Shown piece after piece: positions 43,820 through 57,694 of a DNA stretch of 64,000 nucleotides; positions within the stretch are counted from its first letter, which is position 1, and each line of letters starts with the position of its first letter. A program made the position numbers and the translations under genes. The DNA lies in the NCBI GenBank assembly GCA_965248395.1, contig OZ252103.1:2602882-2666881 (forward strand), in the 5' to 3' direction. This stretch comes from a bacterium. Lineage in GTDB: Bacteria > JAAXHH01. The notes under the pieces are model-generated. The model did not search any database, was not told the origin of the DNA, and worked only from the letters and a program-made list of their open reading frames with translations.

Positions 43820-44106
43820 GCGAAATCCTCCTTCTGGCGTCTATACCGACGTAAAAGGATGATCTGGAAATGGTACCTGTTTACCGACGCGACACCTCCG
43901 ATTCCTCAACGTTGCAATCCGCATAGGAAGATAGTTATGGCCGGCCAGAAAGGCAAATGAATTGTAGGGTTTGAGACCGGGATTTAAAGCGCTTGATGAG
44001 GGGATGATTTCCCGATTAGTATCTTGACTTTTTGAAGACCTGTACGTTACTTCCTCATTTCGGTCTCGTTACATGTTATACGGTTATTACCCGGAGTGTC
44101 GAAATC

Positions 44107-45342
44107 ATGAATTTGAGCAGTCTGAAGGGCAGGACCGTTGGGGCGGCGGTATCGGGTGGACTGGACAGTTGCACCGTCACACGCTGGCTAACCGACCACG
44201 ACGTCGACGTAGTGTGCGTTACCGCAGATCTCGGTCAGCCGGATGAAGAACGCATGGACTATGTCGCGGAGCGGATGATGCGGTGCGGCGCAAGGGAAGC
44301 CGTGATCGTGGACGCGAAGGATCAACTGGCACAGGCCGGTATCGAGGTTGTTCAGTGCCAGGCCATGTACGAGGGAAACTACTGGAACACGACAGGCATA
44401 GCCCGGCACATCACCGTACGGACCCTGCTTCCCGAACTTAAAAAACGCGGGATCGAAATCCTGTCCCACGGCGCGACCGGCCGCGGGAACGACCAGGTCA
44501 GGTTTCAACTCGTAACCAACATGATCGACCCGTCGGTAGAGGTCTACGCCCCATGGCGCGACCAGGCCTTTTTAAACGACTTCCCCGGAAGGAAGGAAAT
44601 GATCGACTTCTGCGAAGACCGGCAGTTGCCGATCCAGGCTTCCCACGAGAAGCCCTATTCCACGGATGCCAATATTCTCGGCCTGACCCACGAGGCCGGT
44701 CGTCTCGAGTCGCTCGAAACCCCGGCCGGATTCATTACGCCCGGCATGGGCGTTCATCCCCGTGAGGCGCCCGAATCGTCCGAATTCTTTGCCGTACGAT
44801 TCGAACAGGGCATTCCCGTCCGGATAAATGAAGAACCGGTCACGCCCCTTTCAGCCATCGAAACGGCAAACCGGATCGGCGGGAGAAACGGGGTTGGAAT
44901 CGGTATCCACACGGTGGAAAACCGTTTCGTGGGTATCAAGAGCAGGGGCGTCTACGAATCACCGGCCATGACGCTTCTTGGACAGTGCTACGAGTACTTG
45001 CTGCAGCTCATACTCGACCGGCGCGCCCGCCGCACCTTCGACCAGACCTCGGCGGTGATCGCGGAACAGATCTACCAGGGCTACTGGTACGATCCGTCGA
45101 CACAGGCTCTCCGGGCTTCCGTAGACGTGTTCAACAGGCTGGCCACGGGGACGATCCGGGTCGAACTGTACAAGGGCCATGTCTCCTTTCAGTCGGCCGA
45201 AGATGTCCCGCACTCCCTCTATTCGGAAACGACGGCATCCATGGAGGGCGTGGGCGACTTCGACCACAAGGATTCCGAGGGTTTTCTCGGCGTATTGGGG
45301 GTCAGCGCGAGGGCGCTCAAATCCTCCAGCCAGACGCGATAA
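44107..45342 (+). CDS. argG: Argininosuccinate synthase (E. coli-type long form)
   Basis: GAAVSGGLDSCTVTRWL...TADLGQPDEE...GATGRGNDQVRF...YSTDANILGLTHEA aligns along E. coli ArgG. Start at ATG 44107 (MNLSSLKGRTVG) rather than the ORF-track 44032. Confidence 0.85.
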   Translation: MNLSSLKGRTVGAAVSGGLDSCTVTRWLTDHDVDVVCVTADLGQPDEERMDYVAERMMRCGAREAVIVDAKDQLAQAGIEVVQCQAMYEGNYWNTTGIARHITVRTLLPELKKRGIEILSHGATGRGNDQVRFQLVTNMIDPSVEVYAPWRDQAFLNDFPGRKEMIDFCEDRQLPIQASHEKPYSTDANILGLTHEAGRLESLETPAGFITPGMGVHPREAPESSEFFAVRFEQGIPVRINEEPVTPLSAIETANRIGGRNGVGIGIHTVENRFVGIKSRGVYESPAMTLLGQCYEYLLQLILDRRARRTFDQTSAVIAEQIYQGYWYDPSTQALRASVDVFNRLATGTIRVELYKGHVSFQSAEDVPHSLYSETTASMEGVGDFDHKDSEGFLGVLGVSARALKSSSQTR

Positions 45343-45375
45343 ACGGGAAGGAAAGACGACGGGAGGGTAACGTCC

Positions 45376-45798
45376 ATGCCAGTGGGTACGAAGAACAAAG
45401 TGATTCCAGGATGCGGTACCCATCACTTGGCCATTCAGTCGAGGGACTGGAACGCATCGCTGCAGTTGTACCGGGATGTCCTCGGGATGAACATCGTGGC
45501 GGAATTCGGACCTGAGGAACGCAGGATCATGCTCCTCGACACCGGGGACGGCAGCCACATCGAGCTGTTCCAGCCCACGGACGAAACCCCGGATCCGGGC
45601 GGGCCTGCTCCCAACGATCCGGTCACGCACCTTGCCCTGGCCACGACGGACACGCGGACCGCGACCGAACATGTCCGTTCCCATGGATACGAGGTAACCG
45701 TCGAACCGAAGGATGTCAATCTCGGGGGACTGGACGTAACCATTGCGTTCTTTAAAGGTCCTAGCGGCGAAGTGGTCGAATTCTTCCAGGTACATTGA
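45376..45798 (+). CDS. VOC family protein (glyoxalase-like)
   Basis: THHLAIQSRDWNASLQLYRDVLGMNIV...HIELFQ...HLALATTDTRTATEHVRSHGYEV. Confidence 0.65.
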   Translation: MPVGTKNKVIPGCGTHHLAIQSRDWNASLQLYRDVLGMNIVAEFGPEERRIMLLDTGDGSHIELFQPTDETPDPGGPAPNDPVTHLALATTDTRTATEHVRSHGYEVTVEPKDVNLGGLDVTIAFFKGPSGEVVEFFQVH

Positions 45799-45874
45799 CC
45801 GACTGCTGAAACCGCAGCGACCCTTCCCCGTTTTTGAAATCACATACGCTCACCCACAACCACGGTACCTTCCT

Positions 45875-47458
45875 ATGTATCGATTCATCAGTACCCTGGC
45901 CCTCTTCCTGGTGACATTGAATCCGGTTTCCGCCCAGGATTACGACGTTTCCGAACTCCAGACCCGCGCGGAACTGTCCTATTTCGACGAGACGACACGG
46001 TACGTAGAGGTCATGTCGTTTTTGCGGGCAGCCGTGCTCATCTCCGACCGGCTCCATCTGACCGAATTCGGCTACACGACCGAAGGACGGAGACTGCCCC
46101 TGCTCGTCTACGGCGACCTATGGGACGCGACCGCCGAGGAAGTCGTCCAGGCCGGCAAGACCCGGGTATTCATCCAGGCGAACATCCACGCGGGGGAGGT
46201 CTGCGGGAAGGAAGCCCTGCTCATGCTCATCCGGGAACTGGCGTCCGGGGAGCACTCGGCCTGGGCCGATTCGCTGGTGCTGCTCATGGCGCCCATATAC
46301 AACGCGGACGGCAACGAAAGGATCAGCCTGTACAACCGTCCACGCCAACACGGCCCCGTGGGCGGCATGGGACAACGGTCCAATGCCCAGGGTTTCGACC
46401 TCAACCGCGATCACATGAAACTGGACTCCCCCGAGGCGCGTTCCCTCGTCGGGCTGATGAACGTATACGATCCCCATGTGCTCATCGATCTCCACACGAC
46501 CAACGGGACCGTACACGGCTACCACCTGACCTACTCGCCGCCGCTCAATCCCAACACCGCCAACCCGATCATCGACCTGCTGCGGGGGGAATGGCTGCCC
46601 GCAGTGAGTGAAACCATTCGGGAGACCTACGGTTGGGAGTTTTACTACTATGGCAACGTTCCAAGGACCGGTTCGACCCGTGAACGGGGCTGGTACACCT
46701 TTGATCACCGACCCCGGTTCAACAACAATTACGTCGGACTCAGAAACCGTATCGCCATACTCAGTGAAGCCTATTCCTACGCGTCGTTTGAAGAACGTAT
46801 CCTGGCCACCCTGGCGTTCGTGAAGGAAAATCTGCACTACGCCCACCGGAATGCGGCTACGATCCGCCAGACCCTCGAAACCGTGGACCTGGCGACCATC
46901 GTGGGTAAAGACCTGGCCGTTCGTTCCGACTACTCCCGGTCCGCGGAACCCATCGATATCCTGCTGGGCGAAGTCGCGGAAACCCCTAATCCGTACACTG
47001 GTGAAGTCATGTATCTCAGGGAGGAAACCGTAAATCCTTCCTCGATGTACGAATACGGTCAATTCTCCGCGATAGAAACCGAACGCGCGCCCCGGACCTA
47101 TTTCGTGCCACCCTCGCTGACCGCCGTGATCGAGCGGCTCAGCGCGCACGGCGTATGGTTCGAAGAGCTTTCCAGTACAAGGGAACTGGCACTGGAGAGG
47201 TTCAGGATAGATTCGACGCTGGTGGCTTCCCAACCCTTCCAGGGCAGGCACGAACGGACCCTGTCCGGCGCGTACGAGCCGGTGGTCCAGACACTGGCAG
47301 CCGGCACGCTGGTCGTACCGGTCGATCAGCAACTGGGTAGACTGGTTTTCTATCTGCTGGAACCCCGGTCCGACGACGGCCTGGTCGCGTGGGCACTGAT
47401 GGACGACGTCCTGGAAGATGCGGAATACTATCCCATCCTGCGCGAACCGGCCGATTAG
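45875..47458 (+). CDS. M14 family zinc carboxypeptidase, secreted
   Basis: Signal peptide MYRFISTLALFLVTLNPVSAQ; zinc-binding HAGE (QANIHAGEVCG) and downstream M14 core (NADGNE...DLNRDH...DLHTTNG). Confidence 0.75.
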   Translation: MYRFISTLALFLVTLNPVSAQDYDVSELQTRAELSYFDETTRYVEVMSFLRAAVLISDRLHLTEFGYTTEGRRLPLLVYGDLWDATAEEVVQAGKTRVFIQANIHAGEVCGKEALLMLIRELASGEHSAWADSLVLLMAPIYNADGNERISLYNRPRQHGPVGGMGQRSNAQGFDLNRDHMKLDSPEARSLVGLMNVYDPHVLIDLHTTNGTVHGYHLTYSPPLNPNTANPIIDLLRGEWLPAVSETIRETYGWEFYYYGNVPRTGSTRERGWYTFDHRPRFNNNYVGLRNRIAILSEAYSYASFEERILATLAFVKENLHYAHRNAATIRQTLETVDLATIVGKDLAVRSDYSRSAEPIDILLGEVAETPNPYTGEVMYLREETVNPSSMYEYGQFSAIETERAPRTYFVPPSLTAVIERLSAHGVWFEELSSTRELALERFRIDSTLVASQPFQGRHERTLSGAYEPVVQTLAAGTLVVPVDQQLGRLVFYLLEPRSDDGLVAWALMDDVLEDAEYYPILREPAD

Positions 47459-47491
47459 CTGCTAGCGGGAATCCCACCCCACGGAGCCGCC

Positions 47492-48454
47492 ATGCCCAGA
47501 CGCGTCATCCTGGACACGGATACGGGAGTCGACGACGCGCTGGCCATCCTGCTGGCCATGCGGTCCCCCGAACTGACCGTCGAAGCCATCACGGGGGTCT
47601 GCGGTAACACACCCCTGGACCACTGCATTCGCAACATTCACATCGCGCTGAACGTACTTGATGGCGAGGTGGCGCCGGTAGTGTCCCAGGGTGAGGTCCG
47701 ACCGCTGGTACGCGAACTGGCCTTCGCGGGGGATATTCACGGGAATGACGGACTGGGCGAGGTGACCCGCCTCACGAATGTCGATGGGTCCCGTATCTAC
47801 CCTGAGCCGTCATGCTGGGTAAGTCCAGTACATGCGGTGGACCTGATACTGAAAAGCACTGAGCGGTATTCGGATGAACTGACCCTGATCGCCGTGGGCC
47901 CGCTGACCAATGTCGCAAGGGCCATCATGAAGGATCCGGACCGGATGCGCGGACTCCGGGAAATCATCATCATGGGCGGCGCTTTCGAGACGCGCGGCAA
48001 TGTCTCCCCGGTAGCGGAATTCAACATCCACGCCGACCCCCATGCCGCCCAGATCGTTTGCGACTCGGGGATCCCGCTACTGTTCGTTCCCCTCGACGTG
48101 ACCCGGCAGGCCTTGCTTGACGCGGAATTGATAAACCGTTATGCCCAAGAGGGAGGCGCCAGGGCGACCTTCGTACGCGATTGCACCGCCCGTTACGTCG
48201 CGTTTCACCGGCGCAACAGGGGGGCCAACGGATGCTTTCTGCACGATCCCCTTGCCGTGGCTGTCGCTATCCGGGTAGATCTCGTAACGCTGGTGCCGGC
48301 AAGGGTGGACGTGGAAACCGCCGGCGACCTCACCACGGGCATGACCGTCGCCGACCTCCGGTCACAGTCAGAGGGCGAACCGAACGCAAGGGTTTGCACC
48401 GCGCTGGACGTCCGTGAATTCTTATCACTGTTTGAGGAGAGGGTGCTCGCATGA
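47492..48454 (+). CDS. Nucleoside hydrolase (IU-NH family)
   Basis: N-terminal DTDTGVDDALAILLA aspartate cluster; ~320 aa. Confidence 0.8.
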   Translation: MPRRVILDTDTGVDDALAILLAMRSPELTVEAITGVCGNTPLDHCIRNIHIALNVLDGEVAPVVSQGEVRPLVRELAFAGDIHGNDGLGEVTRLTNVDGSRIYPEPSCWVSPVHAVDLILKSTERYSDELTLIAVGPLTNVARAIMKDPDRMRGLREIIIMGGAFETRGNVSPVAEFNIHADPHAAQIVCDSGIPLLFVPLDVTRQALLDAELINRYAQEGGARATFVRDCTARYVAFHRRNRGANGCFLHDPLAVAVAIRVDLVTLVPARVDVETAGDLTTGMTVADLRSQSEGEPNARVCTALDVREFLSLFEERVLA

Positions 48455-49185
48455 TCCTCAAGGACCGCACGGCAATCGTCACTGGTGGCGGGCAGGGTAT
48501 CGGCCAGGCGATATGCAGGATCTTCGCGGAAGAAGGCGCTTCCGTCGTGGTCGTGGACATCGACGAATCCCGGGCACTGCAGACGGTCTGTCAACTGAAT
48601 GGAGACGGTCTGAAGGTACGGGCGGTCCAGACCGATGTTTCAGACGGACCGGCGGTAAAGGCCCTCGTCGCCGGCGTCGTCGAGGATTCCGGCCGCGTCG
48701 ATATTCTCGTGAACAACGCGGGACTCGGATTGTTCAGGTCGGTAGAACAGTGCACGGAAGAGGAATGGGACCAGGTGATGGCCGTGAATCTCAAGGGGCC
48801 TTTCCTGTTGGCGAAAGCCGTATTACCAGCGATGCAGGCGCAAAAAAGCGGTGCGATGGTCAACATGGTATCGGTGGCGGGCAAGACCGGCGGTGTGGTG
48901 TCCGGCGCGCCTTACTCGGTATCCAAGGCCGGACTCGAGTGCCTGACCAAGTCGCTGGCACGGGAACTGGCGCCCCACGGGGTACGGGTAAACGCCATTG
49001 CGCCCGGAATCATAGAGACCCCGTTGACCGCCCATCACGATCCATCGTTCATCGAAGCGATTCCCCTCGGAGGCAAGGGGGAACCCCGGGACGTTGCCGA
49101 GGCGGCGCTGTTCCTGGCATCGGATCGATCCCGTCATATCACGGGCGAAATCCTGGATGTCAACGGCGGTTTGCTGATGGATTGA
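48451..49185 (+). CDS. SDR family oxidoreductase (FabG-like)
   Basis: TGGGQGIGQAI cofactor motif, NNAG, YSVSKAG catalytic YxxxK; start overlaps the upstream stop (ATGA). Confidence 0.85.
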   Translation: MILKDRTAIVTGGGQGIGQAICRIFAEEGASVVVVDIDESRALQTVCQLNGDGLKVRAVQTDVSDGPAVKALVAGVVEDSGRVDILVNNAGLGLFRSVEQCTEEEWDQVMAVNLKGPFLLAKAVLPAMQAQKSGAMVNMVSVAGKTGGVVSGAPYSVSKAGLECLTKSLARELAPHGVRVNAIAPGIIETPLTAHHDPSFIEAIPLGGKGEPRDVAEAALFLASDRSRHITGEILDVNGGLLMD

Positions 49186-49218
49186 CCCACTTACAGGATC
49201 GAGCGCGAGGACGGAATA

Positions 49219-49875
49219 TTGCAAACCAGGACCGCAGCAGATACCAATTTCGCGGTGGATATCGTGGACAGGGCCGCGGAGGATCCGGGTAAAGTCGCCT
49301 TGAGATGGCAAAAGGCCGGTGGCGTGGCGTCGGACGTGACGTTCCTCGACCTGAAAATCCGATCCGAGAAGGTCGCACACGTGCTGCACGGCCATGGCGT
49401 CCGCCCAGGACACCGGGTATACATCCTGTTGCCGCCGTGCATCGCCTGGTGGGAGTCGGTTCTGGGATGCATGCGGGCCGGCGCCGTGGCCGTTCTCGGC
49501 CAGGACGCGTCCACCCCGCAGACCCTCGGCGAGCAGATCGTCCATTCCCGCTCGAGCGTGGTGATCGCGACCGTTTCTCTTGCCGACATGATCGACCGTG
49601 TCATGGATCAATGTCCGGACATCACCCACCGATTCGCCGTAGGATGGGAGCGCGAAGGCTGGGTGGACTACGACCGCCGCGTCTCACTCGCGCCAGCCGG
49701 TTTCAAGGCGATGGAGACCCGGAGTACGAACCCCTGTGTCGTCGTATACGAACGGGGAATCTCGCATACCGAAACAACATGCCGTCACGGCGATGAGAAA
49801 TTCGATCTCGACCAGCTCGATGCCTGGCGTGACGGACTGGCTATCGCGGTTCACGACGCGTCCGAGCACCCATGA
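49219..49875 (+). CDS. AMP-dependent synthetase/ligase N-terminal domain-like protein (truncated, 218 aa)
   Basis: The N-terminal ~130 aa resemble an acyl-CoA synthetase N-terminus (KVALRWQKAGG...DVTFLDLKIRSEKVAHVLHGHGVRPGHRVYILLPPCIAWWESVLGCMRAGAVAV). The P-loop/A3-A10 motifs are absent or degenerate; the stop overlaps the next start by 4 bp. Confidence 0.45.
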   Translation: MQTRTAADTNFAVDIVDRAAEDPGKVALRWQKAGGVASDVTFLDLKIRSEKVAHVLHGHGVRPGHRVYILLPPCIAWWESVLGCMRAGAVAVLGQDASTPQTLGEQIVHSRSSVVIATVSLADMIDRVMDQCPDITHRFAVGWEREGWVDYDRRVSLAPAGFKAMETRSTNPCVVVYERGISHTETTCRHGDEKFDLDQLDAWRDGLAIAVHDASEHP

Positions 49876-51032
49876 TTCCCGCGCTAAACGACTACCTGGT
49901 CGTGGATCTCACCACGCAGTTGCCAGGCCCCTACTGTTCCATGCTGCTTGCCGACCTGGGCGCCCGGGTTATCAAGGTCGAACCCCCCGGCGGCGATCCA
50001 CTGCGCAAGTTTCCCCCGGCATTCGCGAGCGTAAACCGCGGCAAGCGGGATATCGTGATCGATTTGAAAACAGAACCCGGCCGGGAAGTCATCGGACGCC
50101 TTATTTCAAGGGCAGACGTGGTACTGGAGGGATTTCGACCCGGTGTCGCCGAACGCCTTGGCGTGGACTATGTATCGACCAGGAAATTCAACCCCGCCGT
50201 CGTATACTGCTCGATATCGGGCTTTGGGCAGGACGGGCCCTATCGGACCCGCGCAGGCCACGACATCAACTATCTCGCAATAGGCGGTCTGCTGGGACGC
50301 AGCGATCCACCCGCGGTCCCGCCCGTGCTGATATCGGACCTGTCGTCCGGATTGTACGCCGCGCTGGCCGTCTCCGCCGCGCTAATGCATCGGACATCCA
50401 CCGGCGAGGGCCACTATATCGATCTGTCCATGACCGATTGCATTCTGTCCTGGATGGCGCTCGATATCGCCAGCGCAGCCCATGACCCGCGGGCAGCCTG
50501 TCAACCGATCCTTGGAAACATCCCGCACTACGGTATTTTCAAGACTTCGGACAATCGATTCATCAGCATCGGTATCGTCCATGAAGACCACTTCTGGGCC
50601 CGCCTTTGCGATGTCCTGGGATTGGACGACTGGAGAGACTGGCCATCGGAAACACGCGCCGACAGGGAAACCGAAATACGGGAAAAACTCCGTGCCGTGT
50701 TCGCCACCGCGTCCTGCCAGGAATGGGACCGGCGCCTGCAGGAAGCGGACGTACCCTGTGGCGCCATTTACAACCTTGACGAACTACCGGATGACCCTTA
50801 TATACAGTATCGAAATCCGTTTTACAGTCTCGTAGCATCCGACCGCACGGAGAGTCGTCAGGTTAAGGCGCCGTATCGAACGGGGACGCCCGACGCCGAT
50901 GCGCCTCTCCCGCCGCCCGTCCAGGGCGAGCACTCGCGAAACGTGCTTTCGGAATCCGGGTACACTGATGTGGAGATTGACGATCTGATTCAACAGGGAG
51001 TTATACACGAATTCCGCGACGGGGAGAAGTAG
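49872..51032 (+). CDS. CoA-transferase family III protein (CaiB/BaiF-like)
   Basis: LNDYLVVDLTTQLPGPYCSMLLADLGARVIKVEPPGGDP...GFRPGV...GHDINYLA is the family-III CoA-transferase signature. Confidence 0.85.
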   Translation: MIPALNDYLVVDLTTQLPGPYCSMLLADLGARVIKVEPPGGDPLRKFPPAFASVNRGKRDIVIDLKTEPGREVIGRLISRADVVLEGFRPGVAERLGVDYVSTRKFNPAVVYCSISGFGQDGPYRTRAGHDINYLAIGGLLGRSDPPAVPPVLISDLSSGLYAALAVSAALMHRTSTGEGHYIDLSMTDCILSWMALDIASAAHDPRAACQPILGNIPHYGIFKTSDNRFISIGIVHEDHFWARLCDVLGLDDWRDWPSETRADRETEIREKLRAVFATASCQEWDRRLQEADVPCGAIYNLDELPDDPYIQYRNPFYSLVASDRTESRQVKAPYRTGTPDADAPLPPPVQGEHSRNVLSESGYTDVEIDDLIQQGVIHEFRDGEK

Positions 51033-51055
51033 TCCGAATCCCCAAAGGAGACATC

Positions 51056-52387
51056 ATGAATATCGTCGTGCGAAACTGGCGAGACCAGGAACCGTACGTG
51101 GGGCACATCAGCGCGGTGGTCTGGACGCTGTACCAGTCCCATGACAAGGATGAAACATCTCCGCCCGACGTAAACCGCCTGCATGGAATCAACAGCTTCG
51201 TCAAGCATGGGCTTCAGGGCCACCAGCATTCGGACCACCATCAGCATGCCGACATCGAGCAGATGTATTTCGTACTTCGGGGGCGCGGACAACTTACCAT
51301 CGGCGATGACAAGGTGGACGTTCGGGACGGCACGGCCGTTTACATGCCTGTCAACGTGCCCCACCAGGCATTCAACGACGGGGATGGATGGATGGAGCAC
51401 TTGATCGTCAGTTGCCCGCTGGACGAAATCCGGGAAGGTACGCCCGCGGTCTGTGACTGGCGTGACGTCCATCCCATCGTGCTTGAAGGAGGTACCATTT
51501 CGTGGCCCCTTCTGCAACGTGAAGAAGACGCCGACGACAGCGAGGGCGGTGTACTCCAGCGCGTGCACAGCGTGACCCGATACGCCGTCCAGGGACGGCA
51601 GGGTACAGCGTGGCAGCAGTTGGATAGGATAGAGCTCGTACACTACGTGCTCAGCGGCTACGGAACGATCGAGGATCAGGACGGCAACCGCAATATGGTC
51701 ACGGAAGGTTCTGCGGCCCATGTACTTCCGGGCGTCGATCATCGATTCGTCAACCAGGGCGAAGGATGGTTCGAATACGTCACCTTCGCGGTCGAAGTAG
51801 GCGAAATCGAAGAGCAGCGGGAATCCGATACTGATTCGGACACCGAGGACGAACAGCCCGGAGTGGAAGAAGCGGCTGCGGCTATTGTGCTTGCGGAAGT
51901 CGACTGGGATGAAGCCGATGCGGTGGAGGCAGAGGAAGAGATCGAGGAGGCTATGGCTGCCGATGCGATCGACGCGGACGATGAGGCAGAGTCCACGGAC
52001 GAGATGGAAGAAGAAACGGACACCGATGCGGCCGAAATAGAAGCCGAAGACGGCGACGATGAGGACGGGGAGGAAGCCGAAGACGGCGACGATGAGGACG
52101 GGGAGGAAGCCGAAGACGGCGACGATGAGGTAGAGGAGAGGGCCGAAGAAAGCGTCGATGAGGCTGAAGAGTCCGACGAAGAAGCCGATGTCACCGAAGA
52201 GGATAGCGGAGAAACCAACGCAGCCGACGATGAAACCGAAGATCTCGATGCGGACGATGAATCAACCGCTGCCGAGGACGAGATTGATCTGGATGACGAA
52301 GAAACGGATTGCGATATCGAAGATGAAACCACCGTTGAGGACGAAACAGGGGAGGAGGACGATTCCCTTGATCCGTACAAACGGTAA
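51056..52387 (+). CDS. Bicupin protein with ~180-aa poly-acidic (D/E-rich) repetitive C-terminal tail
   Basis: Two cupin-like units (HQHADIEQMYFVLRGRGQLTI...VYMPVNVPHQAFN, and HYVLSGYGTIE...AAHVLPGVDHRFVNQG). The final ~180 aa are almost exclusively D/E/A/T, with EAEDGDDEDGE repeats. Confidence 0.6.
   Translation: MNIVVRNWRDQEPYVGHISAVVWTLYQSHDKDETSPPDVNRLHGINSFVKHGLQGHQHSDHHQHADIEQMYFVLRGRGQLTIGDDKVDVRDGTAVYMPVNVPHQAFNDGDGWMEHLIVSCPLDEIREGTPAVCDWRDVHPIVLEGGTISWPLLQREEDADDSEGGVLQRVHSVTRYAVQGRQGTAWQQLDRIELVHYVLSGYGTIEDQDGNRNMVTEGSAAHVLPGVDHRFVNQGEGWFEYVTFAVEVGEIEEQRESDTDSDTEDEQPGVEEAAAAIVLAEVDWDEADAVEAEEEIEEAMAADAIDADDEAESTDEMEEETDTDAAEIEAEDGDDEDGEEAEDGDDEDGEEAEDGDDEVEERAEESVDEAEESDEEADVTEEDSGETNAADDETEDLDADDESTAAEDEIDLDDEETDCDIEDETTVEDETGEEDDSLDPYKR
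52040..52130 (+). repeat. 33-bp tandem repeat (gaagccgaagacggcgacgatgaggacggggag) x ~2.8, coding the EAEDGDDEDGE units of the acidic tail
   Basis: Copies at 52040-52072 and 52073-52105 are identical; a partial third copy runs 52106-52130. Confidence 0.85.
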
Positions 52388-52399
52388 ACGAAAGCGTAC

Positions 52400-53302
52400 G
52401 TGAATAACCTACCCGCCCGATCTTTCGGGCGTACCGGCATGCGTCCGGCGGCGCTGGCCATGGGAGCCGCCTTTCTGCACGGAAGCCCGGAGGCGGTCGA
52501 TGCGATTCAGACTGCCCTGGAACTGGGTATCAACTATTTCGATACCTACCCGGGCCACCACGAGGAAAAATGGGGAGAAGCGCTGTCCGGCGTTCCCCGA
52601 TCCTCCTACTACCTCCAGGCCAAGATCGGCACCCATCCCGAACGCACCAAGGACTTCTCCGGGGAAGGGGCCAGGTGGAGTCTGGACCGTAGCCTGCAAT
52701 CCCTGAAGACGGACTATCTCGACTCCGTACTGGTACACGATCCAAACGACATAGACGAATTACTGCGTGAAGGCGCGGTGTTCGACGTCCTGCGTGAACT
52801 GAAATCGCAAGGGGTGGTCAGAAACATCGGCCTCGGCGCCCGTACGCACGACTGGCACGTACGGCTGATCGATGAAGGCGTCAGCGACGTGTCCCTGACC
52901 TTCCTGGACTATACGCTGATCAACCAGTCGGCCGCCTCCACCATCTTCCCGGCGGCCAGGAGACGGCGAGCCGGAATTATCCTGGCCAGCGTGCAAGGCA
53001 TGGGACTTCTAACCGGATCGGAACCGGACGCGGAACGGGAGCGTGCCATGCATCCCGGCAGCGAGCCGCGCGCGCACCGGATCTGGACCTGGTGCCGGGA
53101 ACGTGGAGTAAACATCCGGCATCTGGCCATTCAGTTTTGCCTCGCGGCGCCGGTGGACAGCCTGGTTATGTTCGGACCGTCGAATATCCAGCAGGTGCGT
53201 GACGCGTACAAAGCCGCCACCGACACCATTCCGTCCGATCTTTGGGAGAAGTTCGACCAGGATTTCGGTATCCGTTCGGGCATGGATGCCCGGCAGTTAT
53301 GA
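52400..53302 (+). CDS. Aldo/keto reductase
   Basis: GINYFDTYPGHHEEKWGEAL, LDSVLVHDP and the overall AKR (alpha/beta)8 pattern. Confidence 0.8.
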   Translation: MNNLPARSFGRTGMRPAALAMGAAFLHGSPEAVDAIQTALELGINYFDTYPGHHEEKWGEALSGVPRSSYYLQAKIGTHPERTKDFSGEGARWSLDRSLQSLKTDYLDSVLVHDPNDIDELLREGAVFDVLRELKSQGVVRNIGLGARTHDWHVRLIDEGVSDVSLTFLDYTLINQSAASTIFPAARRRRAGIILASVQGMGLLTGSEPDAERERAMHPGSEPRAHRIWTWCRERGVNIRHLAIQFCLAAPVDSLVMFGPSNIQQVRDAYKAATDTIPSDLWEKFDQDFGIRSGMDARQL

Positions 53303-53394
53303 TTCCTGGATTGATCCGTTTTCGACACCTTTGCTTGACGAGGCAACCTCAACCCGTCAAGACCGGAATTCAGACCCCACGGAACTAATACTTC

Positions 53395-54162
53395 ATGCCC
53401 TCACTGTCCTTTACGCCCCGTGTACCCGTCATCGACGCCAACGTATGCGTGGGCAATCACCACACCGGACCGTCGCCCTGCCAGAATCCTTCCCAGTTGC
53501 TCGCCGAAATGGATACGCACGGCGTCCAGCGCGCGGTGATATACCATGCGCAGGGCGAAGAGATCAGTCCCACCGACGGCAACCTCCTATTGGAGGACTG
53601 GCTCGAGAATGAAGGAAGACTGATTCCGCAGTGGTCGGTTGCGCCTGTAGACACCTCCATGAAGCAGCTCGAGGATCTGCACAGCCAGGGACGGGTAACG
53701 TCCGTTCGCCTGCACAACACCCAGTCCGCCGGACTTCCGTTCCGTCCCTGGGGCTATGATGGTCTGCTGTCCTTTCTCACGGAAGCCGGGATCCCGTTGT
53801 GGATCCCGCTGATGGACGTGGATATGAACGACCTGGTAACGACCCTCCAGGCCTATCCGGATCTGCGCGCGGTGCTCGTCGGCGCGCACTATACCCACGC
53901 GGTAGTCGTTCGCGGTCTGCTTGAAGCGAGTACCAACGCCGTGCTGGAACTCAGCCGCTACGAGCCCATTGGCGAAGTGGAGGCGCTCGTAGACCGGTAC
54001 GGTGCGGATCGGCTGATCTACGGCTCCTGGTATCCCAGGTACGCCATGGGTCCGATCCTGTTCTACCTGCACCACACCCGCATGAGCGACGAGGATCTCG
54101 CGCGGATCTGCACCGGAAACGTCGAGCGCCTGCTCGAACCGCAGCGGGGGGATCATGATTGA
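53395..54162 (+). CDS. Amidohydrolase-2 family protein; first metal-binding HxH replaced (IDANVCVGN)
   Basis: ACMSD/LigW-like TIM-barrel pattern through to GADRLIYGSWYP, but the N-terminal HxH is N-x-V here. Confidence 0.6.
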   Translation: MPSLSFTPRVPVIDANVCVGNHHTGPSPCQNPSQLLAEMDTHGVQRAVIYHAQGEEISPTDGNLLLEDWLENEGRLIPQWSVAPVDTSMKQLEDLHSQGRVTSVRLHNTQSAGLPFRPWGYDGLLSFLTEAGIPLWIPLMDVDMNDLVTTLQAYPDLRAVLVGAHYTHAVVVRGLLEASTNAVLELSRYEPIGEVEALVDRYGADRLIYGSWYPRYAMGPILFYLHHTRMSDEDLARICTGNVERLLEPQRGDHD

Positions 54163-54904
54163 CAGCTCGAAAGTGATCGACTTCCACGGACACGTAGGCC
54201 GGTGGGAACGTTACGGCATGATTGACGACCCTGAACTATTGCTGGCTGCCATGGATGCCGTCGGTATCGACATCGCATGCCTTTTTCACATTTTTCATCC
54301 GGACGGCACCACGGGCAACGATCTGACCGCGAAATTCGTCGCCCGGAATCCAGAACGGTTCGTGGGATTCGCCTACGTCTCTCCGACCATGCCCGACCGC
54401 ATGGTGCCCGAACTGGAGCGGGCGGTCGACCAGCTGGGATTTCCGGCCATCAAACTATACCCGCCCTATACGCCCTGGCCCTTCAACGAAGAACCCTGGC
54501 ATCCGATCTATGAATTCGCCCAGGACCGGGGTCTGACCATCATCTTCCACACGGATCATTTTAAAAACAGCCGGCCCCGGTACTTCGAAGACCTTGCCCC
54601 GGCCTATCCTCGTGTAAATTTCGTTTCCGGTCATTCGGGCAACGTACCCGAAGCGCGCGCCGAAGCCATCGCGGCGGCACAGAAGTACCCGAACGTCTAC
54701 CTCGAGACCTGCTCGACATACCGGACACCCGGTGTTATCGAAGAACTGGTGGAAAAGGGTGGAGCCGACCGCGTGCTTTACGGGTCGGACATGCCCCTGA
54801 TGGATCCGCGGCCGCAGATCGGCAAGATCATCACGGCCCGTATCTCTTCCGAGGCCAAGCGGATGGCGCTGGGCGGCAATGCGGCCCGGTTGCTCGGATT
54901 GTAG
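54155..54904 (+). CDS. Amidohydrolase-2 family protein (HxH present)
   Basis: VIDFHGHVG HxH, IIFHTDH, GADRVLYGSDMP; start overlaps the upstream gene by 8 bp. Confidence 0.7.
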   Translation: MIDSSKVIDFHGHVGRWERYGMIDDPELLLAAMDAVGIDIACLFHIFHPDGTTGNDLTAKFVARNPERFVGFAYVSPTMPDRMVPELERAVDQLGFPAIKLYPPYTPWPFNEEPWHPIYEFAQDRGLTIIFHTDHFKNSRPRYFEDLAPAYPRVNFVSGHSGNVPEARAEAIAAAQKYPNVYLETCSTYRTPGVIEELVEKGGADRVLYGSDMPLMDPRPQIGKIITARISSEAKRMALGGNAARLLGL

Positions 54905-54960
54905 ATTATATGATGTACGCGCTCGATGCTGTCTGACCACCCCCGATCCTGGAGGTTTAC

Positions 54961-55953
54961 GTGATTGTCGGTAATACTGAATTGCATAACGTCCACGAAT
55001 TGCTGGATGACCCCGAAGGCATGGGCAGCATTTGCTGCCGTGTCCCCAATGACCTTCGCGTGACGCTGAATGAAGCTGCTTTGAACAATGCACTGGTGTC
55101 AACGGGATGCGAAATCCGGTTCAACCTGGAAGGACCGCACGCGGTCATAACCCTGCAGAGTCCCGAAGCACCGACGCTCGTGGAAGTATACCAGGGCGAT
55201 TTCTTCAGCGCTTTACATATTGTCGACGTAACCCCGACACGAATTGTCGCGGCACGGCCCGAGGCCGAGGCAGTCATGCGCCAGGTCACCCCGTCCAGTG
55301 CGCGGTTCGACACCGGTCTTACCCGGGTGATCCTGCCGTGGCGTCCTTCGGTTCGACTGATTTCCATCGAGGGAGAAACGTCGCTGCCGAGACCGGATCA
55401 GACTCCGAATACGCGATACCTGGCCTACGGTTCGTCGATCACCCATGGAAGCACGGCCGTACGGCCCACGGGCACGTACCCCGCCCGGGCGGCCGACCTG
55501 CTGGGCACCGATCTCTTCAACCTGGGATTCGGCGGAGGCGCACACATGGAAGCGGGCATGGCGGACTACATTGCCGGACGCAATGACTGGGACATCGCGA
55601 CGCTTGAGATGGGCATCAACGTCGTGCAGGCATTCGACGTGGACGAGTTTCACCGGCGCGTCGAGTACTTCGTGACGACCATTGCCGACTCTCATCCCGA
55701 TGACTGGATCTTCTGCATTGACATATTCCCATGCCTGTATGATTTTATGGGCGTCGAAAAAGCCGAAACCTTCCGATCCATCGTAGCGGAACGGGTGCGG
55801 CAGTTGAACCGGCCGAGGCTCGTGCACATACCGGGTGACGCCATGCTCAGGTCCAAAACAGGACTGACGGTGGACCTGGTGCATCCTGCGCCTGCCGGTT
55901 TCGAGGAAATGGCGCGGAACCTGGCGGACATCATTCGCGCCCGAAGAAAGTAA
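54961..55953 (+). CDS. SGNH/GDSL-like hydrolase with N-terminal beta-sandwich domain
   Basis: GTG start after GGAGG; catalytic-Ser block YLAYGSSITHG, Gly block NLGFGGG, and DLVHP (DxxH) near the C-terminus. Confidence 0.65.
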   Translation: MIVGNTELHNVHELLDDPEGMGSICCRVPNDLRVTLNEAALNNALVSTGCEIRFNLEGPHAVITLQSPEAPTLVEVYQGDFFSALHIVDVTPTRIVAARPEAEAVMRQVTPSSARFDTGLTRVILPWRPSVRLISIEGETSLPRPDQTPNTRYLAYGSSITHGSTAVRPTGTYPARAADLLGTDLFNLGFGGGAHMEAGMADYIAGRNDWDIATLEMGINVVQAFDVDEFHRRVEYFVTTIADSHPDDWIFCIDIFPCLYDFMGVEKAETFRSIVAERVRQLNRPRLVHIPGDAMLRSKTGLTVDLVHPAPAGFEEMARNLADIIRARRK

Positions 55954-56016
55954 GAGCGCGAAGAACGTGAAAAACCGAGATCGATTCACCAACCAGTCAC
56001 GAAAAAGGGGCAATAA

Positions 56017-57048
56017 ATGGATACCATTCGCGTAGGCGTGGTCGGTGCCGGCGGCAACACGGTAAGCATGCATATACCGAAGCTGCAGGCTATCGAAGGG
56101 GTGGAGATCGTCAGCGTGTGCAACCGAAGCCGCGCATCATCAGAGCGGGTGGCCAGGCAGTTCGGCATCCCTACCGTCTACGAAACTTGGGCGGACCTGA
56201 TCGAGGCGGACGACACGGATGCCATCGTCGTCGGTACCTGGCCCTACCTGCACTGCGCAACGACCCTTGCCGCCCTGGCTTCCGGCAAGCACATCCTGTG
56301 CGAAGCGCGCATGGCCATGAACCTTGAAGAAGCCCAGCTCATGCACGACGCCGCACAGAGCAGTCCCGACCTCGTGGCCCAGATCGTGCCTTCCCCCATG
56401 ACACTGTGGGCTGACAAGACCATTCAGCGCCTCATAGCGGAAGGATACGCGGGCGACATACTCAGCGTGGAGCTCCGCTCCTCCGGCAGCGCGTTCATTG
56501 ACAGGGACAGTCCGATGCACTGGCGTCAGGATTACGAACTGAGCGGCATGAACATCATGACCATGGGAATCTGGTACGAGGCGATGAGACGCTGGGTGGG
56601 AGATCCGCTTCGCGTGTTCGCCCAGGGCAAGACCTTCACGAAAATGCGTAGAGACGCGGAGACCGGCGTGATACGCGCCATTCGGGTTCCGGAGCACATC
56701 GACATCGTGATGGACATGATCTGCGGCGCATCGGCCTATATCAAGATTTCGACCGTCCAGGGACTGGCCAACGAAAACGAGGCCACGATCTACGGCAGCG
56801 AGGGCACGATCCGAATGGGCGACGGCAAAATACACGGCGCACGGCGCGGGGAGGAAGCCCTGGGAGAGATCGAGATCCGGCCCGAAGACCACGGAGAATG
56901 GCGGGTGGAGGAAGAATTCGTCAACGCCATCCGTGGCCTGGAGAAGGTCACCCACACACCCTTGGACATCGGAATCAAGTATATGGAATTCACCGAGGCT
57001 GTGAACCGCAGCATGGAGGAAGGGAAAGCCATCCCCCTGCCTTTGTAA
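56017..57048 (+). CDS. Gfo/Idh/MocA family oxidoreductase
   Basis: IRVGVVGAGGNTVSMHIPKL...GKHILCEARMA is the family consensus. Confidence 0.8.
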   Translation: MDTIRVGVVGAGGNTVSMHIPKLQAIEGVEIVSVCNRSRASSERVARQFGIPTVYETWADLIEADDTDAIVVGTWPYLHCATTLAALASGKHILCEARMAMNLEEAQLMHDAAQSSPDLVAQIVPSPMTLWADKTIQRLIAEGYAGDILSVELRSSGSAFIDRDSPMHWRQDYELSGMNIMTMGIWYEAMRRWVGDPLRVFAQGKTFTKMRRDAETGVIRAIRVPEHIDIVMDMICGASAYIKISTVQGLANENEATIYGSEGTIRMGDGKIHGARRGEEALGEIEIRPEDHGEWRVEEEFVNAIRGLEKVTHTPLDIGIKYMEFTEAVNRSMEEGKAIPLPL

Positions 57049-57112: not shown

Positions 57113-57694
57113 CTACGAAGGAATGACGCGATCCACGTAAGCCAGCAACGCGTCGATCATGTCTTGCGGGGTCGATTCGTTGACGACTGTGAAATCCGCC
57201 ATGGCAATGGGACCGCCTTTCTCGATGTTCTCGATCTCTGCGTGGTCCCGCTTCCGCGCTTCGTCCGACGTGAGAGGCCGCATTCGGTACTGGGGGTCTT
57301 TTTGAGCGTCGTGCACGCGATGTTCCAGGCGCTCATACCGGGTCTTCGGCGAAGAGGCGACGGCCACGACGTGGACGCGGTCGCCATACGCTTCCTTCAG
57401 AATCTTGTGTTCCGACCAGGAATACATTCCGTCAATCACGACGTGATCGTGTTTGAGTCCTTCCTCGATGGCGGACAGCGAGAGCAACGCAAACGCGCCC
57501 ATGCCATGGTCGCGCCTTAACTGTTCCCGCTTCGTCTTCTCGTTCTCCGGATTGATTTCTCTACCTTCTTCCTTGAGGCGGTCGATGGTCACCTGGCCGA
57601 AGCGGATATGACGCCACCCCCTGCCGACCAGGCATCCCGCTGCCGTTGACTTGCCCGAGCCGGTCATTCCTACGATGGCGACGATGATGTGCAT
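57113..57694 (-). CDS. P-loop nucleotide kinase-like protein (AAA/adenylate-kinase/dephospho-CoA-kinase-like)
   Basis: Walker A IVAIVGMTGSGKSTAA at the N-terminus; 193 aa; LID-like basic segment. Confidence 0.5.
   Translation of the reverse strand: MHIIVAIVGMTGSGKSTAAGCLVGRGWRHIRFGQVTIDRLKEEGREINPENEKTKREQLRRDHGMGAFALLSLSAIEEGLKHDHVVIDGMYSWSEHKILKEAYGDRVHVVAVASSPKTRYERLEHRVHDAQKDPQYRMRPLTSDEARKRDHAEIENIEKGGPIAMADFTVVNESTPQDMIDALLAYVDRVIPS

Follow-up and report, generated by a model that had tools for sequence, protein, structure and literature searches.

Two adjoining gene units and a putative two-barrel amidohydrolase in a Gemmatimonadota genome

Enzymes of the Amidohydro_2 family (PF04909) are mostly regarded as homo-oligomers, and the 2-aminoisobutyrate hydroxylase AibH1H2 is the sole heteromer that was found described. 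Its two PF04909-fold subunits are encoded by adjoining genes and form an (alpha-beta)2 heteromer, in which the catalytic site lies in one subunit only (PMC10401708). The amidohydrolase-related dinuclear oxygenases (AROs) are characterized by two motifs, D-x-H in the N-terminal part and D-x-P-H-x-D/E in the C-terminal part (PMC13154177), and PDB entry 4ifk (ACMSD) carries the statement that arginines of the neighbouring subunit are essential for catalysis. Here, two adjoining Amidohydro_2 genes, termed AH2a and AH2b, are described from a stretch of 64,000 nucleotides of a Gemmatimonadota genome (GCA_965248395.1, contig OZ252103.1, positions 2,602,882 to 2,666,881 of the forward strand; the window hereafter), where they lie within a long run of + strand genes. 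An initial annotation made from the sequence had presented ten of these genes, at 47492-57048, as a candidate catabolic operon. Comparison with related loci suggests, at a probability of roughly 0.6, that the ten genes are two evolutionary units standing side by side rather than one pathway, and that the AH2 module encodes a two-barrel enzyme.

LigW, gamma-resorcylate decarboxylase, ACMSD and LigJ have the (beta/alpha)8 fold in common with AH2b, along with its metal ligands HxH, His and Asp. The protocatechuate 4,5-cleavage (Lig) pathway likewise combines Amidohydro_2 enzymes (LigI, LigJ, LigW and LigY) with redox steps, but no extradiol or intradiol dioxygenase was found in the array and its genes are not co-inherited. 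The non-phosphorylative oxidation of L-galactose or L-fucose resembles the locus in that an aldo/keto reductase (AKR) similar to L-galactose dehydrogenase is encoded directly upstream of the Amidohydro_2 genes, accompanied by redox partners of sugar type and an esterase. It differs in that AH2b is far from the known lactonases, no dehydratase or aldolase is encoded and the AKR has an unusual loop.

The AH2a-AH2b pair

Families in the window were assigned with Pfam, and subfamilies were checked against NCBIfam cut-offs. AH2a (53395-54162, + strand) matches PF04909 with 35.5 bits against a cut-off of 26.4, and AH2b (54155-54904, + strand; 249 aa) matches it at E 3e-39. H11, H13, H132, H160, E184 and D212 of AH2b are invariant in the family alignment, and the HxH, further His and Asp of the Amidohydro_2 metal site are all present, whereas AH2a lacks this set: across 32 family members H11 is replaced by Asn, H13 by Arg, Cys or Gly, and D212 by Trp, Tyr or Phe, while H132 is deleted. 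Despite the loss of all metal ligands AH2a is under purifying selection, with dN/dS of 0.15-0.23; the values for AH2b (0.07-0.09) are the lowest in the region.

A subfamily assignment of the amidohydrolases, which the initial annotation had called for, placed AH2b in the LigW/ACMSD/LigJ branch by sequence and by fold. The best sequence matches are LigW, gamma-resorcylate decarboxylase, ACMSD and LigJ at E 3e-15 to 1e-9, with LigY also near. The AlphaFold2 (AF2) model of AH2b, a compact (beta/alpha)8 barrel with a pLDDT of 91.8, has the same four enzymes as its nearest Foldseek neighbours (TMq 0.75-0.82, 17-23% identity). AH2b is about 80 residues shorter than these enzymes (249 vs 320-350 aa), and whereas they are homo-oligomers, AH2b is paired with or fused to a ligand-less paralogue. 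No lactonase was matched in the sequence searches at the thresholds used, and by fold a single LigI-like pyrone hydrolase appeared, at rank 39 only. AH2b matches no NCBIfam model, and AH2a returned no PDB match at E<=0.1 in the sequence search of solved structures.

A metagenome scan anchored on AH2b gave 80 loci, to which six were added by exact look-ups; 81 of them have enough flanking sequence to be informative. AH2a and AH2b adjoin in 80 of these 81, which come from several phyla: AH2a is directly upstream of AH2b in 79 and directly downstream in one (L113), and it is missing from L110. Of 97 complete pairs, 53 have a stop/start spacing of -4, 21 of -8 and five of -1 (together 79/97). AH2b is 61-95% identical among the metagenome loci, and homologues about 70% identical occur in bins labelled Gemmatimonadota, Zixibacteria, Chloroflexota/SAR202, Poribacteria and Nitrososphaerales. 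The neighbours of the pair differ each time in Chloroflexota, in Poribacteria and in the Nitrososphaerales-labelled bin. An identity of about 70% for the split form across bins with different phylum labels may mean that the reaction is under strong constraint and acts on a widespread metabolite of marine or host origin.

The bin with the archaeal label Nitrososphaerales contributes a 4-kb contig (L120, GCA_050262095.1), on which the upstream partner overlaps the AH2b homologue (~70% identical) by 4 bp, and DeoR regulators and a creatinase/M24 gene follow on the 3' side. Given the short contig, this pair could reflect either horizontal transfer or mis-binning.

Fused two-barrel proteins occur as well. 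Two fusions of 509-511 aa (L032:8777-10306 and L088:6354-7889) consist of an N-terminal half without ligands and a C-terminal half bearing five metal ligands and E184; both adjoin an AH2a-AH2b pair, and some Chloroflexota-type loci hold the fused and split forms together. An AH2b profile search over 1.84 billion cluster representatives (50% identity) returned 438 at E<=1e-30, of which the best 150 were inspected. Among these 150, 48 are of fusion size (~500-550 aa), with the AH2b-like domain at the C-terminus in 46 of the 48; all five ligands are present in 43 of these 46 domains, and the N-terminal halves have none. Adjacency and fusion, the pattern to be expected of a heteromeric two-barrel amidohydrolase, are both found.

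AibH1H2 resembles the pair in its neighbouring PF04909-fold genes and its one catalytic partner, and AH2b also has an N-terminal D-x-H and a C-terminal D-x-P-x-x-D. The difference is that AibH1 still binds metal, whereas AH2a has no ligands; AibH chains did not come up for AH2a or AH2b when PDB sequences were searched at the thresholds used. An assignment of AH2b as an ARO oxygenase was rejected, for D9-F-H11 is present but the C-terminal stretch reads DMPLMD, with L215 invariant, and not D-x-P-H-x-D/E. AH2a has neither ARO motif, and no Rieske or reductase partner was noted beside the pair.

The AH2a-AH2b pair is thus probably one two-barrel enzyme, in which a catalytic barrel is accompanied by a non-catalytic one. 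AH2b would be a compact barrel with a mononuclear metal site made up of H11, H13, H160 and D212, plus H132 and E184. The two proteins would be co-produced through their overlapping stop and start codons and would assemble as a hetero-oligomer in which AH2b alone is catalytic, AH2a providing interface or substrate-binding elements that the shorter AH2b possibly lacks. For the reaction, a non-redox step of the Amidohydro_2 type is expected, in which a small molecule with a carboxyl group is hydrolysed, hydrated or decarboxylated. A wider proposal, to which we give slightly less than even odds, is that the pair and its fused relatives make up a large unnamed class in which the ligand-less barrel is an obligatory partner of the compact catalytic barrel. 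Literature searches returned no description of the AH2 pair or of the window's gene cluster.

Two separately inherited units

All ten open reading frames (ORFs) that the initial annotation had placed at 47492-57048 are present on the + strand at those coordinates in the ORF list, Pfam agreed with the families proposed for them, and the close packing was likewise borne out. The nucleoside hydrolase (NH) and short-chain dehydrogenase/reductase (SDR) genes overlap by 4 bp, the ANL fragment and CoA-transferase genes by 4 bp and the AH2 genes by 8 bp; the remaining gaps measure 12-92 bp and so stay within the 100 bp allowed for. The starting point had to be moved, as the co-directional run begins at argG (44032) and not at 47492, the argG, VOC and M14 genes lying upstream with 33-bp gaps. 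The resulting run of 13 genes is the longest in the window, other runs having six genes at most. No + strand terminator-like or sigma-70-like promoter site was seen within 44032-57048 in a scan for consensus sequences only, and Rfam had no match anywhere in the window, hence no riboswitch; a single long transcript over the run is possible. The chance of a 13-gene run, estimated roughly from the window's strand-switch rate, is about 0.1, and packing by itself is therefore weak evidence for an operon.

Gene order in relatives divides the run in two. Unit 1 (44032-52387) extends from argG through the bicupin gene and persists to about 50% identity while both of its flanks change. Unit 2 (52400-57048) consists of AKR, AH2a, AH2b, GDSL esterase and Gfo/Idh/MocA (Gfo) genes and is found only in this clade and in one marine relative. 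The two-unit structure is well supported by these comparisons, and the ten genes would be the last five genes of an older eight-gene block followed by a five-gene add-on, with single members dispensable.

The window's genome is a 3.7-Mb Gemmatimonadota genome from a sponge- or coral-associated clade; bicupin, AH2a and AH2b sequences identical to the window's lie together on a contig of 3,724,616 bp. Relatives with names are Gemmatimonadota, some bins carry the label Latescibacterota, and many relatives come from sponge or coral metagenomes, judged by their bin names (IRC1, APA, SB0665, Plut). A genome scan with the bicupin alignment yielded 27 loci, about 20 of which, together with L036 from the metagenome scan, are collinear with the window from sucA to the PHP gene at 75-95% amino-acid identity. 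In all, about 25 close relatives (metagenome-assembled genomes, MAGs) at this level of identity keep the order; they also retain sucA, argG, the permease, the thiamine pyrophosphate (TPP) enzyme and the hisJ-family PHP gene, and tyrS was seen only in loci that extend that far. Since the housekeeping flanks are conserved too, collinearity in close relatives is uninformative about an operon.

Distant relatives, with bicupins 49-59% identical, behave differently: the array stops at the bicupin gene and the AKR-to-Gfo half is absent. The break after the bicupin gene was found in L014, L024, L025, L115, L117 and L118. In L025, L115, L117 and L118 the bicupin is 49-56% and ArgG 76-80% identical to the window's proteins (L118 begins within the VOC gene, and argG is not covered there). 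Their order is argG, VOC or PALP, M14, NH, SDR, ANL fragment, CoA-transferase and bicupin, often with a DUF218 gene on the 3' side. The surroundings are unlike those in the window, with an M42 peptidase gene, or PhyH and methyltransferase genes, upstream of argG, and DHDPS/YqeC/rhomboid or PhyH/HpcH genes downstream of the bicupin gene. The block of L014 likewise ends at the bicupin gene, followed by LptE, and has no M14 gene. None of the AKR, AH2a, AH2b, GDSL or window-type Gfo genes lies downstream in L014, L025, L115, L117 or L118.

Unit 2 genes also stand without unit 1, as AH2a-AH2b-GDSL-Gfo in L039, L040 and L042 and as AH2a-AH2b-Gfo in L044. The genes upstream of AH2a in these loci are unrelated to those in the window, among them patatin-Omp85 in L039 and, in L042, a gene for a 631-aa protein without a Pfam family. 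The marine relative L038 (Ga0310344_10000002, a 626-kb contig) has argG to SDR, the CoA-transferase gene and AKR to Gfo, without the ANL fragment and bicupin genes; L023 is without the ANL fragment only, and L024 without the CoA-transferase only. The synteny search suggested with the initial annotation told against one operon as soon as the relatives compared were remote enough to be informative: the gene order is kept in close relatives, albeit with housekeeping flanks, but co-inheritance fails in distant relatives and single genes are lost (L023, L024, L038). The idea of one ten-gene operon fits the packing and the order in close relatives, and it fails where the array splits after the bicupin gene and the units are inherited separately. 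Operon boundaries drawn from packing were wrong at both ends, the conserved block being argG through bicupin. In this Gemmatimonadota lineage the two units may well be co-transcribed.

A 333-aa Gfo/Idh/MocA gene lies between the CoA-transferase and bicupin genes in three of the distant loci (L025:8984-9985, L117:6981-7982 and L118:7000-8001). Its stop overlaps the bicupin start by 1 bp in L118, and 12-18 bp separate the two genes in L025 and L117. This gene is absent from that position in the window and belongs to another family than the Gfo gene that ends the window's run: a tblastn search with the latter gave no hit in L025 and L117, and in L118 only 24% identity to another Gfo gene.

Proteins of unit 1 and the flanking genes

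Unit 1 appears to be an old, lineage-specific block whose membership looks functionally mixed. Its first gene, argG (44032-45342, + strand), encodes argininosuccinate synthase with both Arginosuc_synth domains (N and C) in Pfam and 368.8 bits against the TIGR00032 cut-off of 268.2, and the conserved block of L025, L115 and L117 likewise opens with it. The following VOC/glyoxalase-fold protein of 140 aa (45376-45798, + strand; Pfam Glyoxalase, E 3e-16) is below every NCBIfam equivalog cut-off, and a PALP enzyme takes its place in L115. The ORF of the M14 zinc carboxypeptidase (Pfam Peptidase_M14, + strand) starts mechanically at 45743 and so shares 56 bp with the VOC gene. Residue 45 of this long ORF opens a stretch resembling a signal peptide, MYRFISTLALFLVTLNPVSAQ, and homologues are 527-533 aa long; the start is therefore likely the Met at 45875, giving a gene of 45875-47458 whose product is probably exported or secreted.

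The inosine-uridine-type NH (47492-48454, + strand) matches PF01156 IU_nuc_hydro with 307.9 bits (E 1e-91), and DTDTGVDD at residues 8-15 is the DxDxxxDD Ca-binding motif that marks it as an IU-nucleoside hydrolase. It scores under the RihA, RihC and UriH equivalog cut-offs, and its substrate class is therefore not given by the models. The classical SDR (48451-49185, + strand; adh_short_C2, E 7e-65) passes broad subfamily models only, namely PRK07231 'glucose 1-dehydrogenase' (239 vs 215) and PRK12826.1-2 (233 vs 222). The NH/SDR overlap is retained in L025, L115, L117 and L118. Purine catabolism, combining the NH with a ureidoglycine-aminohydrolase-like bicupin, was considered and rejected, because the bicupin falls far short of TIGR03214 and no allantoin-pathway genes are present in the window.

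The ANL N-terminal-subdomain protein of 218 aa (49219-49875, + strand) matches PF00501 AMP-binding over positions 3-142 of 384 only, in line with its earlier description as truncated and AMP-ligase-like. The truncation does not mean a broken gene, since it belongs to a stable family: all 50 homologues are 134-231 aa long and none reaches the length of a full ligase, identity is still 42-48% in L024, L025, L115, L117 and L118, and dN/dS is 0.24-0.31, the region's highest in most comparisons yet far below 1. A fresh pseudogene was rejected on the same lengths and dN/dS values. No T[SG]GTTGxPKG P-loop is visible, YERGISHTE follows after residue 184, and the C-terminal domain is absent; the P-loop, full N-terminal domain and mobile C-terminal domain of an adenylate-forming ANL enzyme are thus not found together. 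With neither P-loop nor C-terminal domain, the protein is predicted to be unable to adenylate. By sequence it is a conserved truncated family (about 215 aa), translationally coupled to the CoA-transferase-fold gene, and it is likely another non-catalytic partner protein. Literature searches returned no description of N-terminal-only ANL proteins.

The family III CoA-transferase-fold protein (49872-51032, + strand) matches PF02515 CoA_transf_3 over its full length (E 3e-95). In PDB searches MCR (1.8e-49) and formyl-CoA transferase (3.7e-49) were equally good, and the protein scores under all NCBIfam equivalog cut-offs, with at best 205 bits vs 750. It carries a GHDINYLA motif, which we take to be akin to that of alpha-methylacyl-CoA racemase. 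The full-length domain is shared with the family III CoA-transferases and alpha-methylacyl-CoA racemase, and the coupling of the gene to an ANL fragment that would be unable to adenylate sets it apart. An oxalate pathway, built from this transferase, the downstream TPP enzyme and an OxdC-like bicupin, was rejected because no oxalyl-CoA decarboxylase model figures among the top 25 NCBIfam matches to the TPP enzyme (59434-61011), the best being PRK08266 and models of the 5-guanidino-2-oxopentanoate decarboxylase-like and acetolactate-synthase-like kinds.

The bicupin (51056-52387, + strand; 443 residues, two Cupin_2 stretches) consists of a core and a tail. The core, residues 1-252 (51056-51811), is a two-barrel fold of ~250 aa, and its N-domain carries a 3His-1Glu metal motif (H62, H64, E68 and H103) that is invariant in the alignment. 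The AF2 model (pLDDT 89.9) matched ureidoglycine aminohydrolase/YlbA, BacB, quercetinase, oxalate decarboxylase and pirin alike in Foldseek (TM 0.7-0.8, 11-16% identity). In the PDB sequence search no solved relative was better than E 6e-4, and those found were generic cupins. The TIGR03214 score of 24.8 bits, against a cut-off of 200, speaks against a ureidoglycine aminohydrolase. The label 'dioxygenase-like' given to this protein did not hold up, as the cupin subfamily check yielded fold-level likeness only, at the same 11-16% identity to all classes.

The tail, which had been absent from the earlier description of the gene string, comprises residues 253-443 (51812-52387); these 191 aa are polyacidic, with 54% D+E and 2% K+R, and a 33-bp tandem repeat lies at 52040-52163. 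Among homologues the tail varies from 130 to 366 aa and its final ~30 residues form a conserved motif (...DFDLEDDDADFDIEDEDETVVEDETGEDDDSPDADRR), while distant homologues of 246-254 aa have no tail. An acidic tail with a conserved end distinguishes the window's bicupin from (S)-ureidoglycine aminohydrolase/YlbA, BacB, pirin and quercetinase, with which it shares the fold. The ETGE and acidic-hydrophobic elements in the tail are presumably similar to docking motifs, which is speculation on our part. In a far less likely reading than that of a two-barrel enzyme class, the end motif (DFDIEDEDETVVEDETGE...) might be a protein-docking signal, possibly host-directed.

The upstream flank of the run contains the housekeeping genes sucA and sucB, and downstream lie genes for an amino-acid permease, the TPP enzyme, a hisJ-family PHP phosphatase and tyrS. 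Immediately 3' of the run, on the opposite strand, 57113-57694 (-) encodes a 193-aa AAA_18/AAA_17 P-loop kinase-like protein, which is kept at that position across the whole clade and weakly matches part of an anti-phage dCTP deaminase model of NCBIfam (E 2e-7, far under the cut-off). Elsewhere in the window, two adjoining ORFs at 35548-36729 (-) and 36734-37927 (-), which encode 393 and 397 aa, matched no Pfam family at E<=0.001.

Unit 2 partners, substrate and competing explanations

The AKR (52400-53302, + strand; PF00248 Aldo_ket_red, E 1e-33) has L-galactose dehydrogenases as its best solved relatives, at E 2e-29 to 1e-22. It contains an atypical DTYPGHH loop, residues 46-54 (52535-52560), with a four-residue deletion relative to the L-galactose dehydrogenases; the loop is identical in 22 of 24 homologous loci, L035 and L038 differing at one residue each. 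Linkage of the AKR to the AH2 pair is confined to this clade and L038. The SGNH/GDSL esterase (54961-55953, + strand; Lipase_GDSL_3 and Lipase_GDSL_2) has an N-terminal domain of ~150 aa and the motifs GSS, GIN and DLVH, and its PDB relatives are 4lhs and SsfX3. Its gene is 3' of AH2b in L036-L043, L037-type fragments excepted, and partly in L046. The final gene of the run (56017-57048, + strand; PF01408 GFO_IDH_MocA, PF22725) encodes a Gfo/Idh/MocA NAD(P) oxidoreductase whose nearest solved relatives are the sugar dehydrogenases DgpA, levoglucosan dehydrogenase, 1,5-anhydrofructose reductase and scyllo-inositol dehydrogenase; it is located 3' of AH2a-AH2b(-GDSL) in L036, L038-L040 and L042-L044.

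Unit 2 would thus be built around a portable two-gene module, AH2a-AH2b, and its steps may be deacetylation, then oxidation, then processing by AH2ab. A carbohydrate-type substrate in this genome is a tentative lean, with the odds clearly against it, taken because the AKR is near L-galactose dehydrogenases, the Gfo protein is near sugar dehydrogenases and an SGNH esterase is encoded between them. Elsewhere the neighbours of the pair include DHDPS-type, PIG-L deacetylase, PhyH, TauD, class-III aminotransferase, amidase and S58/M24/M19 peptidase genes, as well as Opp-type ABC transporters, a third Amidohydro_2, and BNR and Gfo proteins; in some loci heparinase-like and acetyl-xylan-esterase-like genes also lie near the pair, along with those for BNR and PIG-L deacetylase. 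Clustering of the neighbours in the 41 longer loci gave no dominant partner and no substrate readable from context. The commonest clusters are DHDPS-type (9), one Gfo cluster (9), one PhyH cluster (8) and SBP_bac_5 (8), and Gfo-type and PhyH-type neighbours spread over additional clusters. Aromatic-pathway genes are not among the AH2b gene neighbourhoods.

Several observations weigh against parts of this interpretation. The case for physical association of AH2a and AH2b is drawn from the arrangement of the genes, their coupling and the fused forms. In the fusions, the N-terminal halves score higher with the AH2b profile than with the AH2a profile; the architecture is shared, but orthology to AH2a need not follow. 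The nearest solved relatives of AH2b act on aromatic or unsaturated acids, and the neighbourhoods of the pair elsewhere would fit an amino-acid-derived or amino-sugar substrate no less well than a plain sugar. In the AKR, D47, K75 and H113 align with the tetrad of L-galactose dehydrogenase, whereas the Tyr column holds a His, with Y49 nearby. The conservation of unit 1 might reflect slow genome rearrangement and not selection, and the two units could form one fully integrated pathway in this clade even if they come apart in other lineages.

It is very unlikely that all ten genes form one catabolic operon devoted to an aromatic or heterocyclic compound, perhaps of host origin. Such an operon would make the bicupin a ring-cleaving dioxygenase and AH2a/AH2b a LigW/LigI/LigJ-like decarboxylase, lactonase or hydratase, with CoA activation by the transferase and the SDR, AKR and Gfo proteins as redox steps. 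The tight + strand packing with three stop/start overlaps, the lack of a predicted internal terminator in the consensus scan and the gene order retained in about 25 related MAGs are in its favour, as are the nearest solved relatives of AH2b (LigW, gamma-resorcylate decarboxylase, ACMSD, LigJ, LigY) and the 3His-1Glu motif of the bicupin, whose fold is also that of quercetinase. The order nevertheless breaks after the bicupin gene in every distant relative examined, unit 2 also stands alone, and L038 retains all but the ANL fragment and bicupin genes. The bicupin has no specific likeness to any dioxygenase, being equally remote from all bicupin classes, and the ANL fragment would be unable to adenylate. 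No regulator, transporter or ring-cleaving oxygenase is found among the array's genes, and the run begins with the housekeeping argG and a secreted peptidase. The resemblance to ring-cleavage or heterocycle degradation seen by the initial annotation is thus not supported, the AKR and Gfo proteins pointing to carbohydrate chemistry.

A non-phosphorylative sugar-oxidation route across both units, fed by host nucleosides or glycans, is unlikely, if less so. Here the NH would free ribose or another glycone, the SDR or AKR would convert an aldose to a lactone, AH2ab would serve as lactonase, the GDSL enzyme would remove O-acetyl groups and the Gfo protein would carry out a further oxidation. Amidohydro_2 does include sugar lactonases, for example the cog3618 L-fucono-1,5-lactonase. 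The SDR score over the PRK07231 'glucose 1-dehydrogenase' cut-off (239 vs 215), the sugar dehydrogenases closest to the AKR and Gfo proteins, and the BNR, PIG-L deacetylase, heparinase-like and acetyl-xylan-esterase-like genes beside the pair in some loci would agree with such a route. AH2b, however, matches the decarboxylase/hydratase branch and not the cog3618 lactonases, a sugar-acid dehydratase, an aldolase, a kinase and a sugar transporter are all missing from the array, its halves have separate inheritance, and in many loci the genes around the pair are of a peptide or amino-acid type. Also quite improbable is that there is no functional unit at all, and that genes acting independently have stayed together in a compact symbiont genome of 3.7 Mb through slow rearrangement and a bias in replication strand. 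Collinearity in relatives does extend well past the array into housekeeping genes, the contents are mixed (argG, secreted peptidase, NH), and a 13-gene run is only mildly improbable by the rough estimate above. Against this stand the conserved 4-bp and 8-bp overlaps, the survival of the argG-to-bicupin block through exchange of both flanks, and the AH2a-AH2b adjacency across phyla together with the fusions.

The reading of two side-by-side units with a two-barrel AH2 enzyme also shifts where attention is due. The ten-gene array as such is ordinary, while the split and fused two-barrel amidohydrolase and the truncated ANL family deserve biochemical follow-up, the latter as a stable family cut down to an N-terminal subdomain and coupled to a CoA-transferase-fold protein. 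If the two-barrel proposal is true, AH2a-AH2b and its fused relatives would constitute a second, much larger and non-oxygenase class of heteromeric Amidohydro_2 enzymes beside AibH1H2, and this would help to correct many 'amidohydrolase family protein' annotations. The pair would then stand for a reaction widespread among marine and sponge-associated bacteria.

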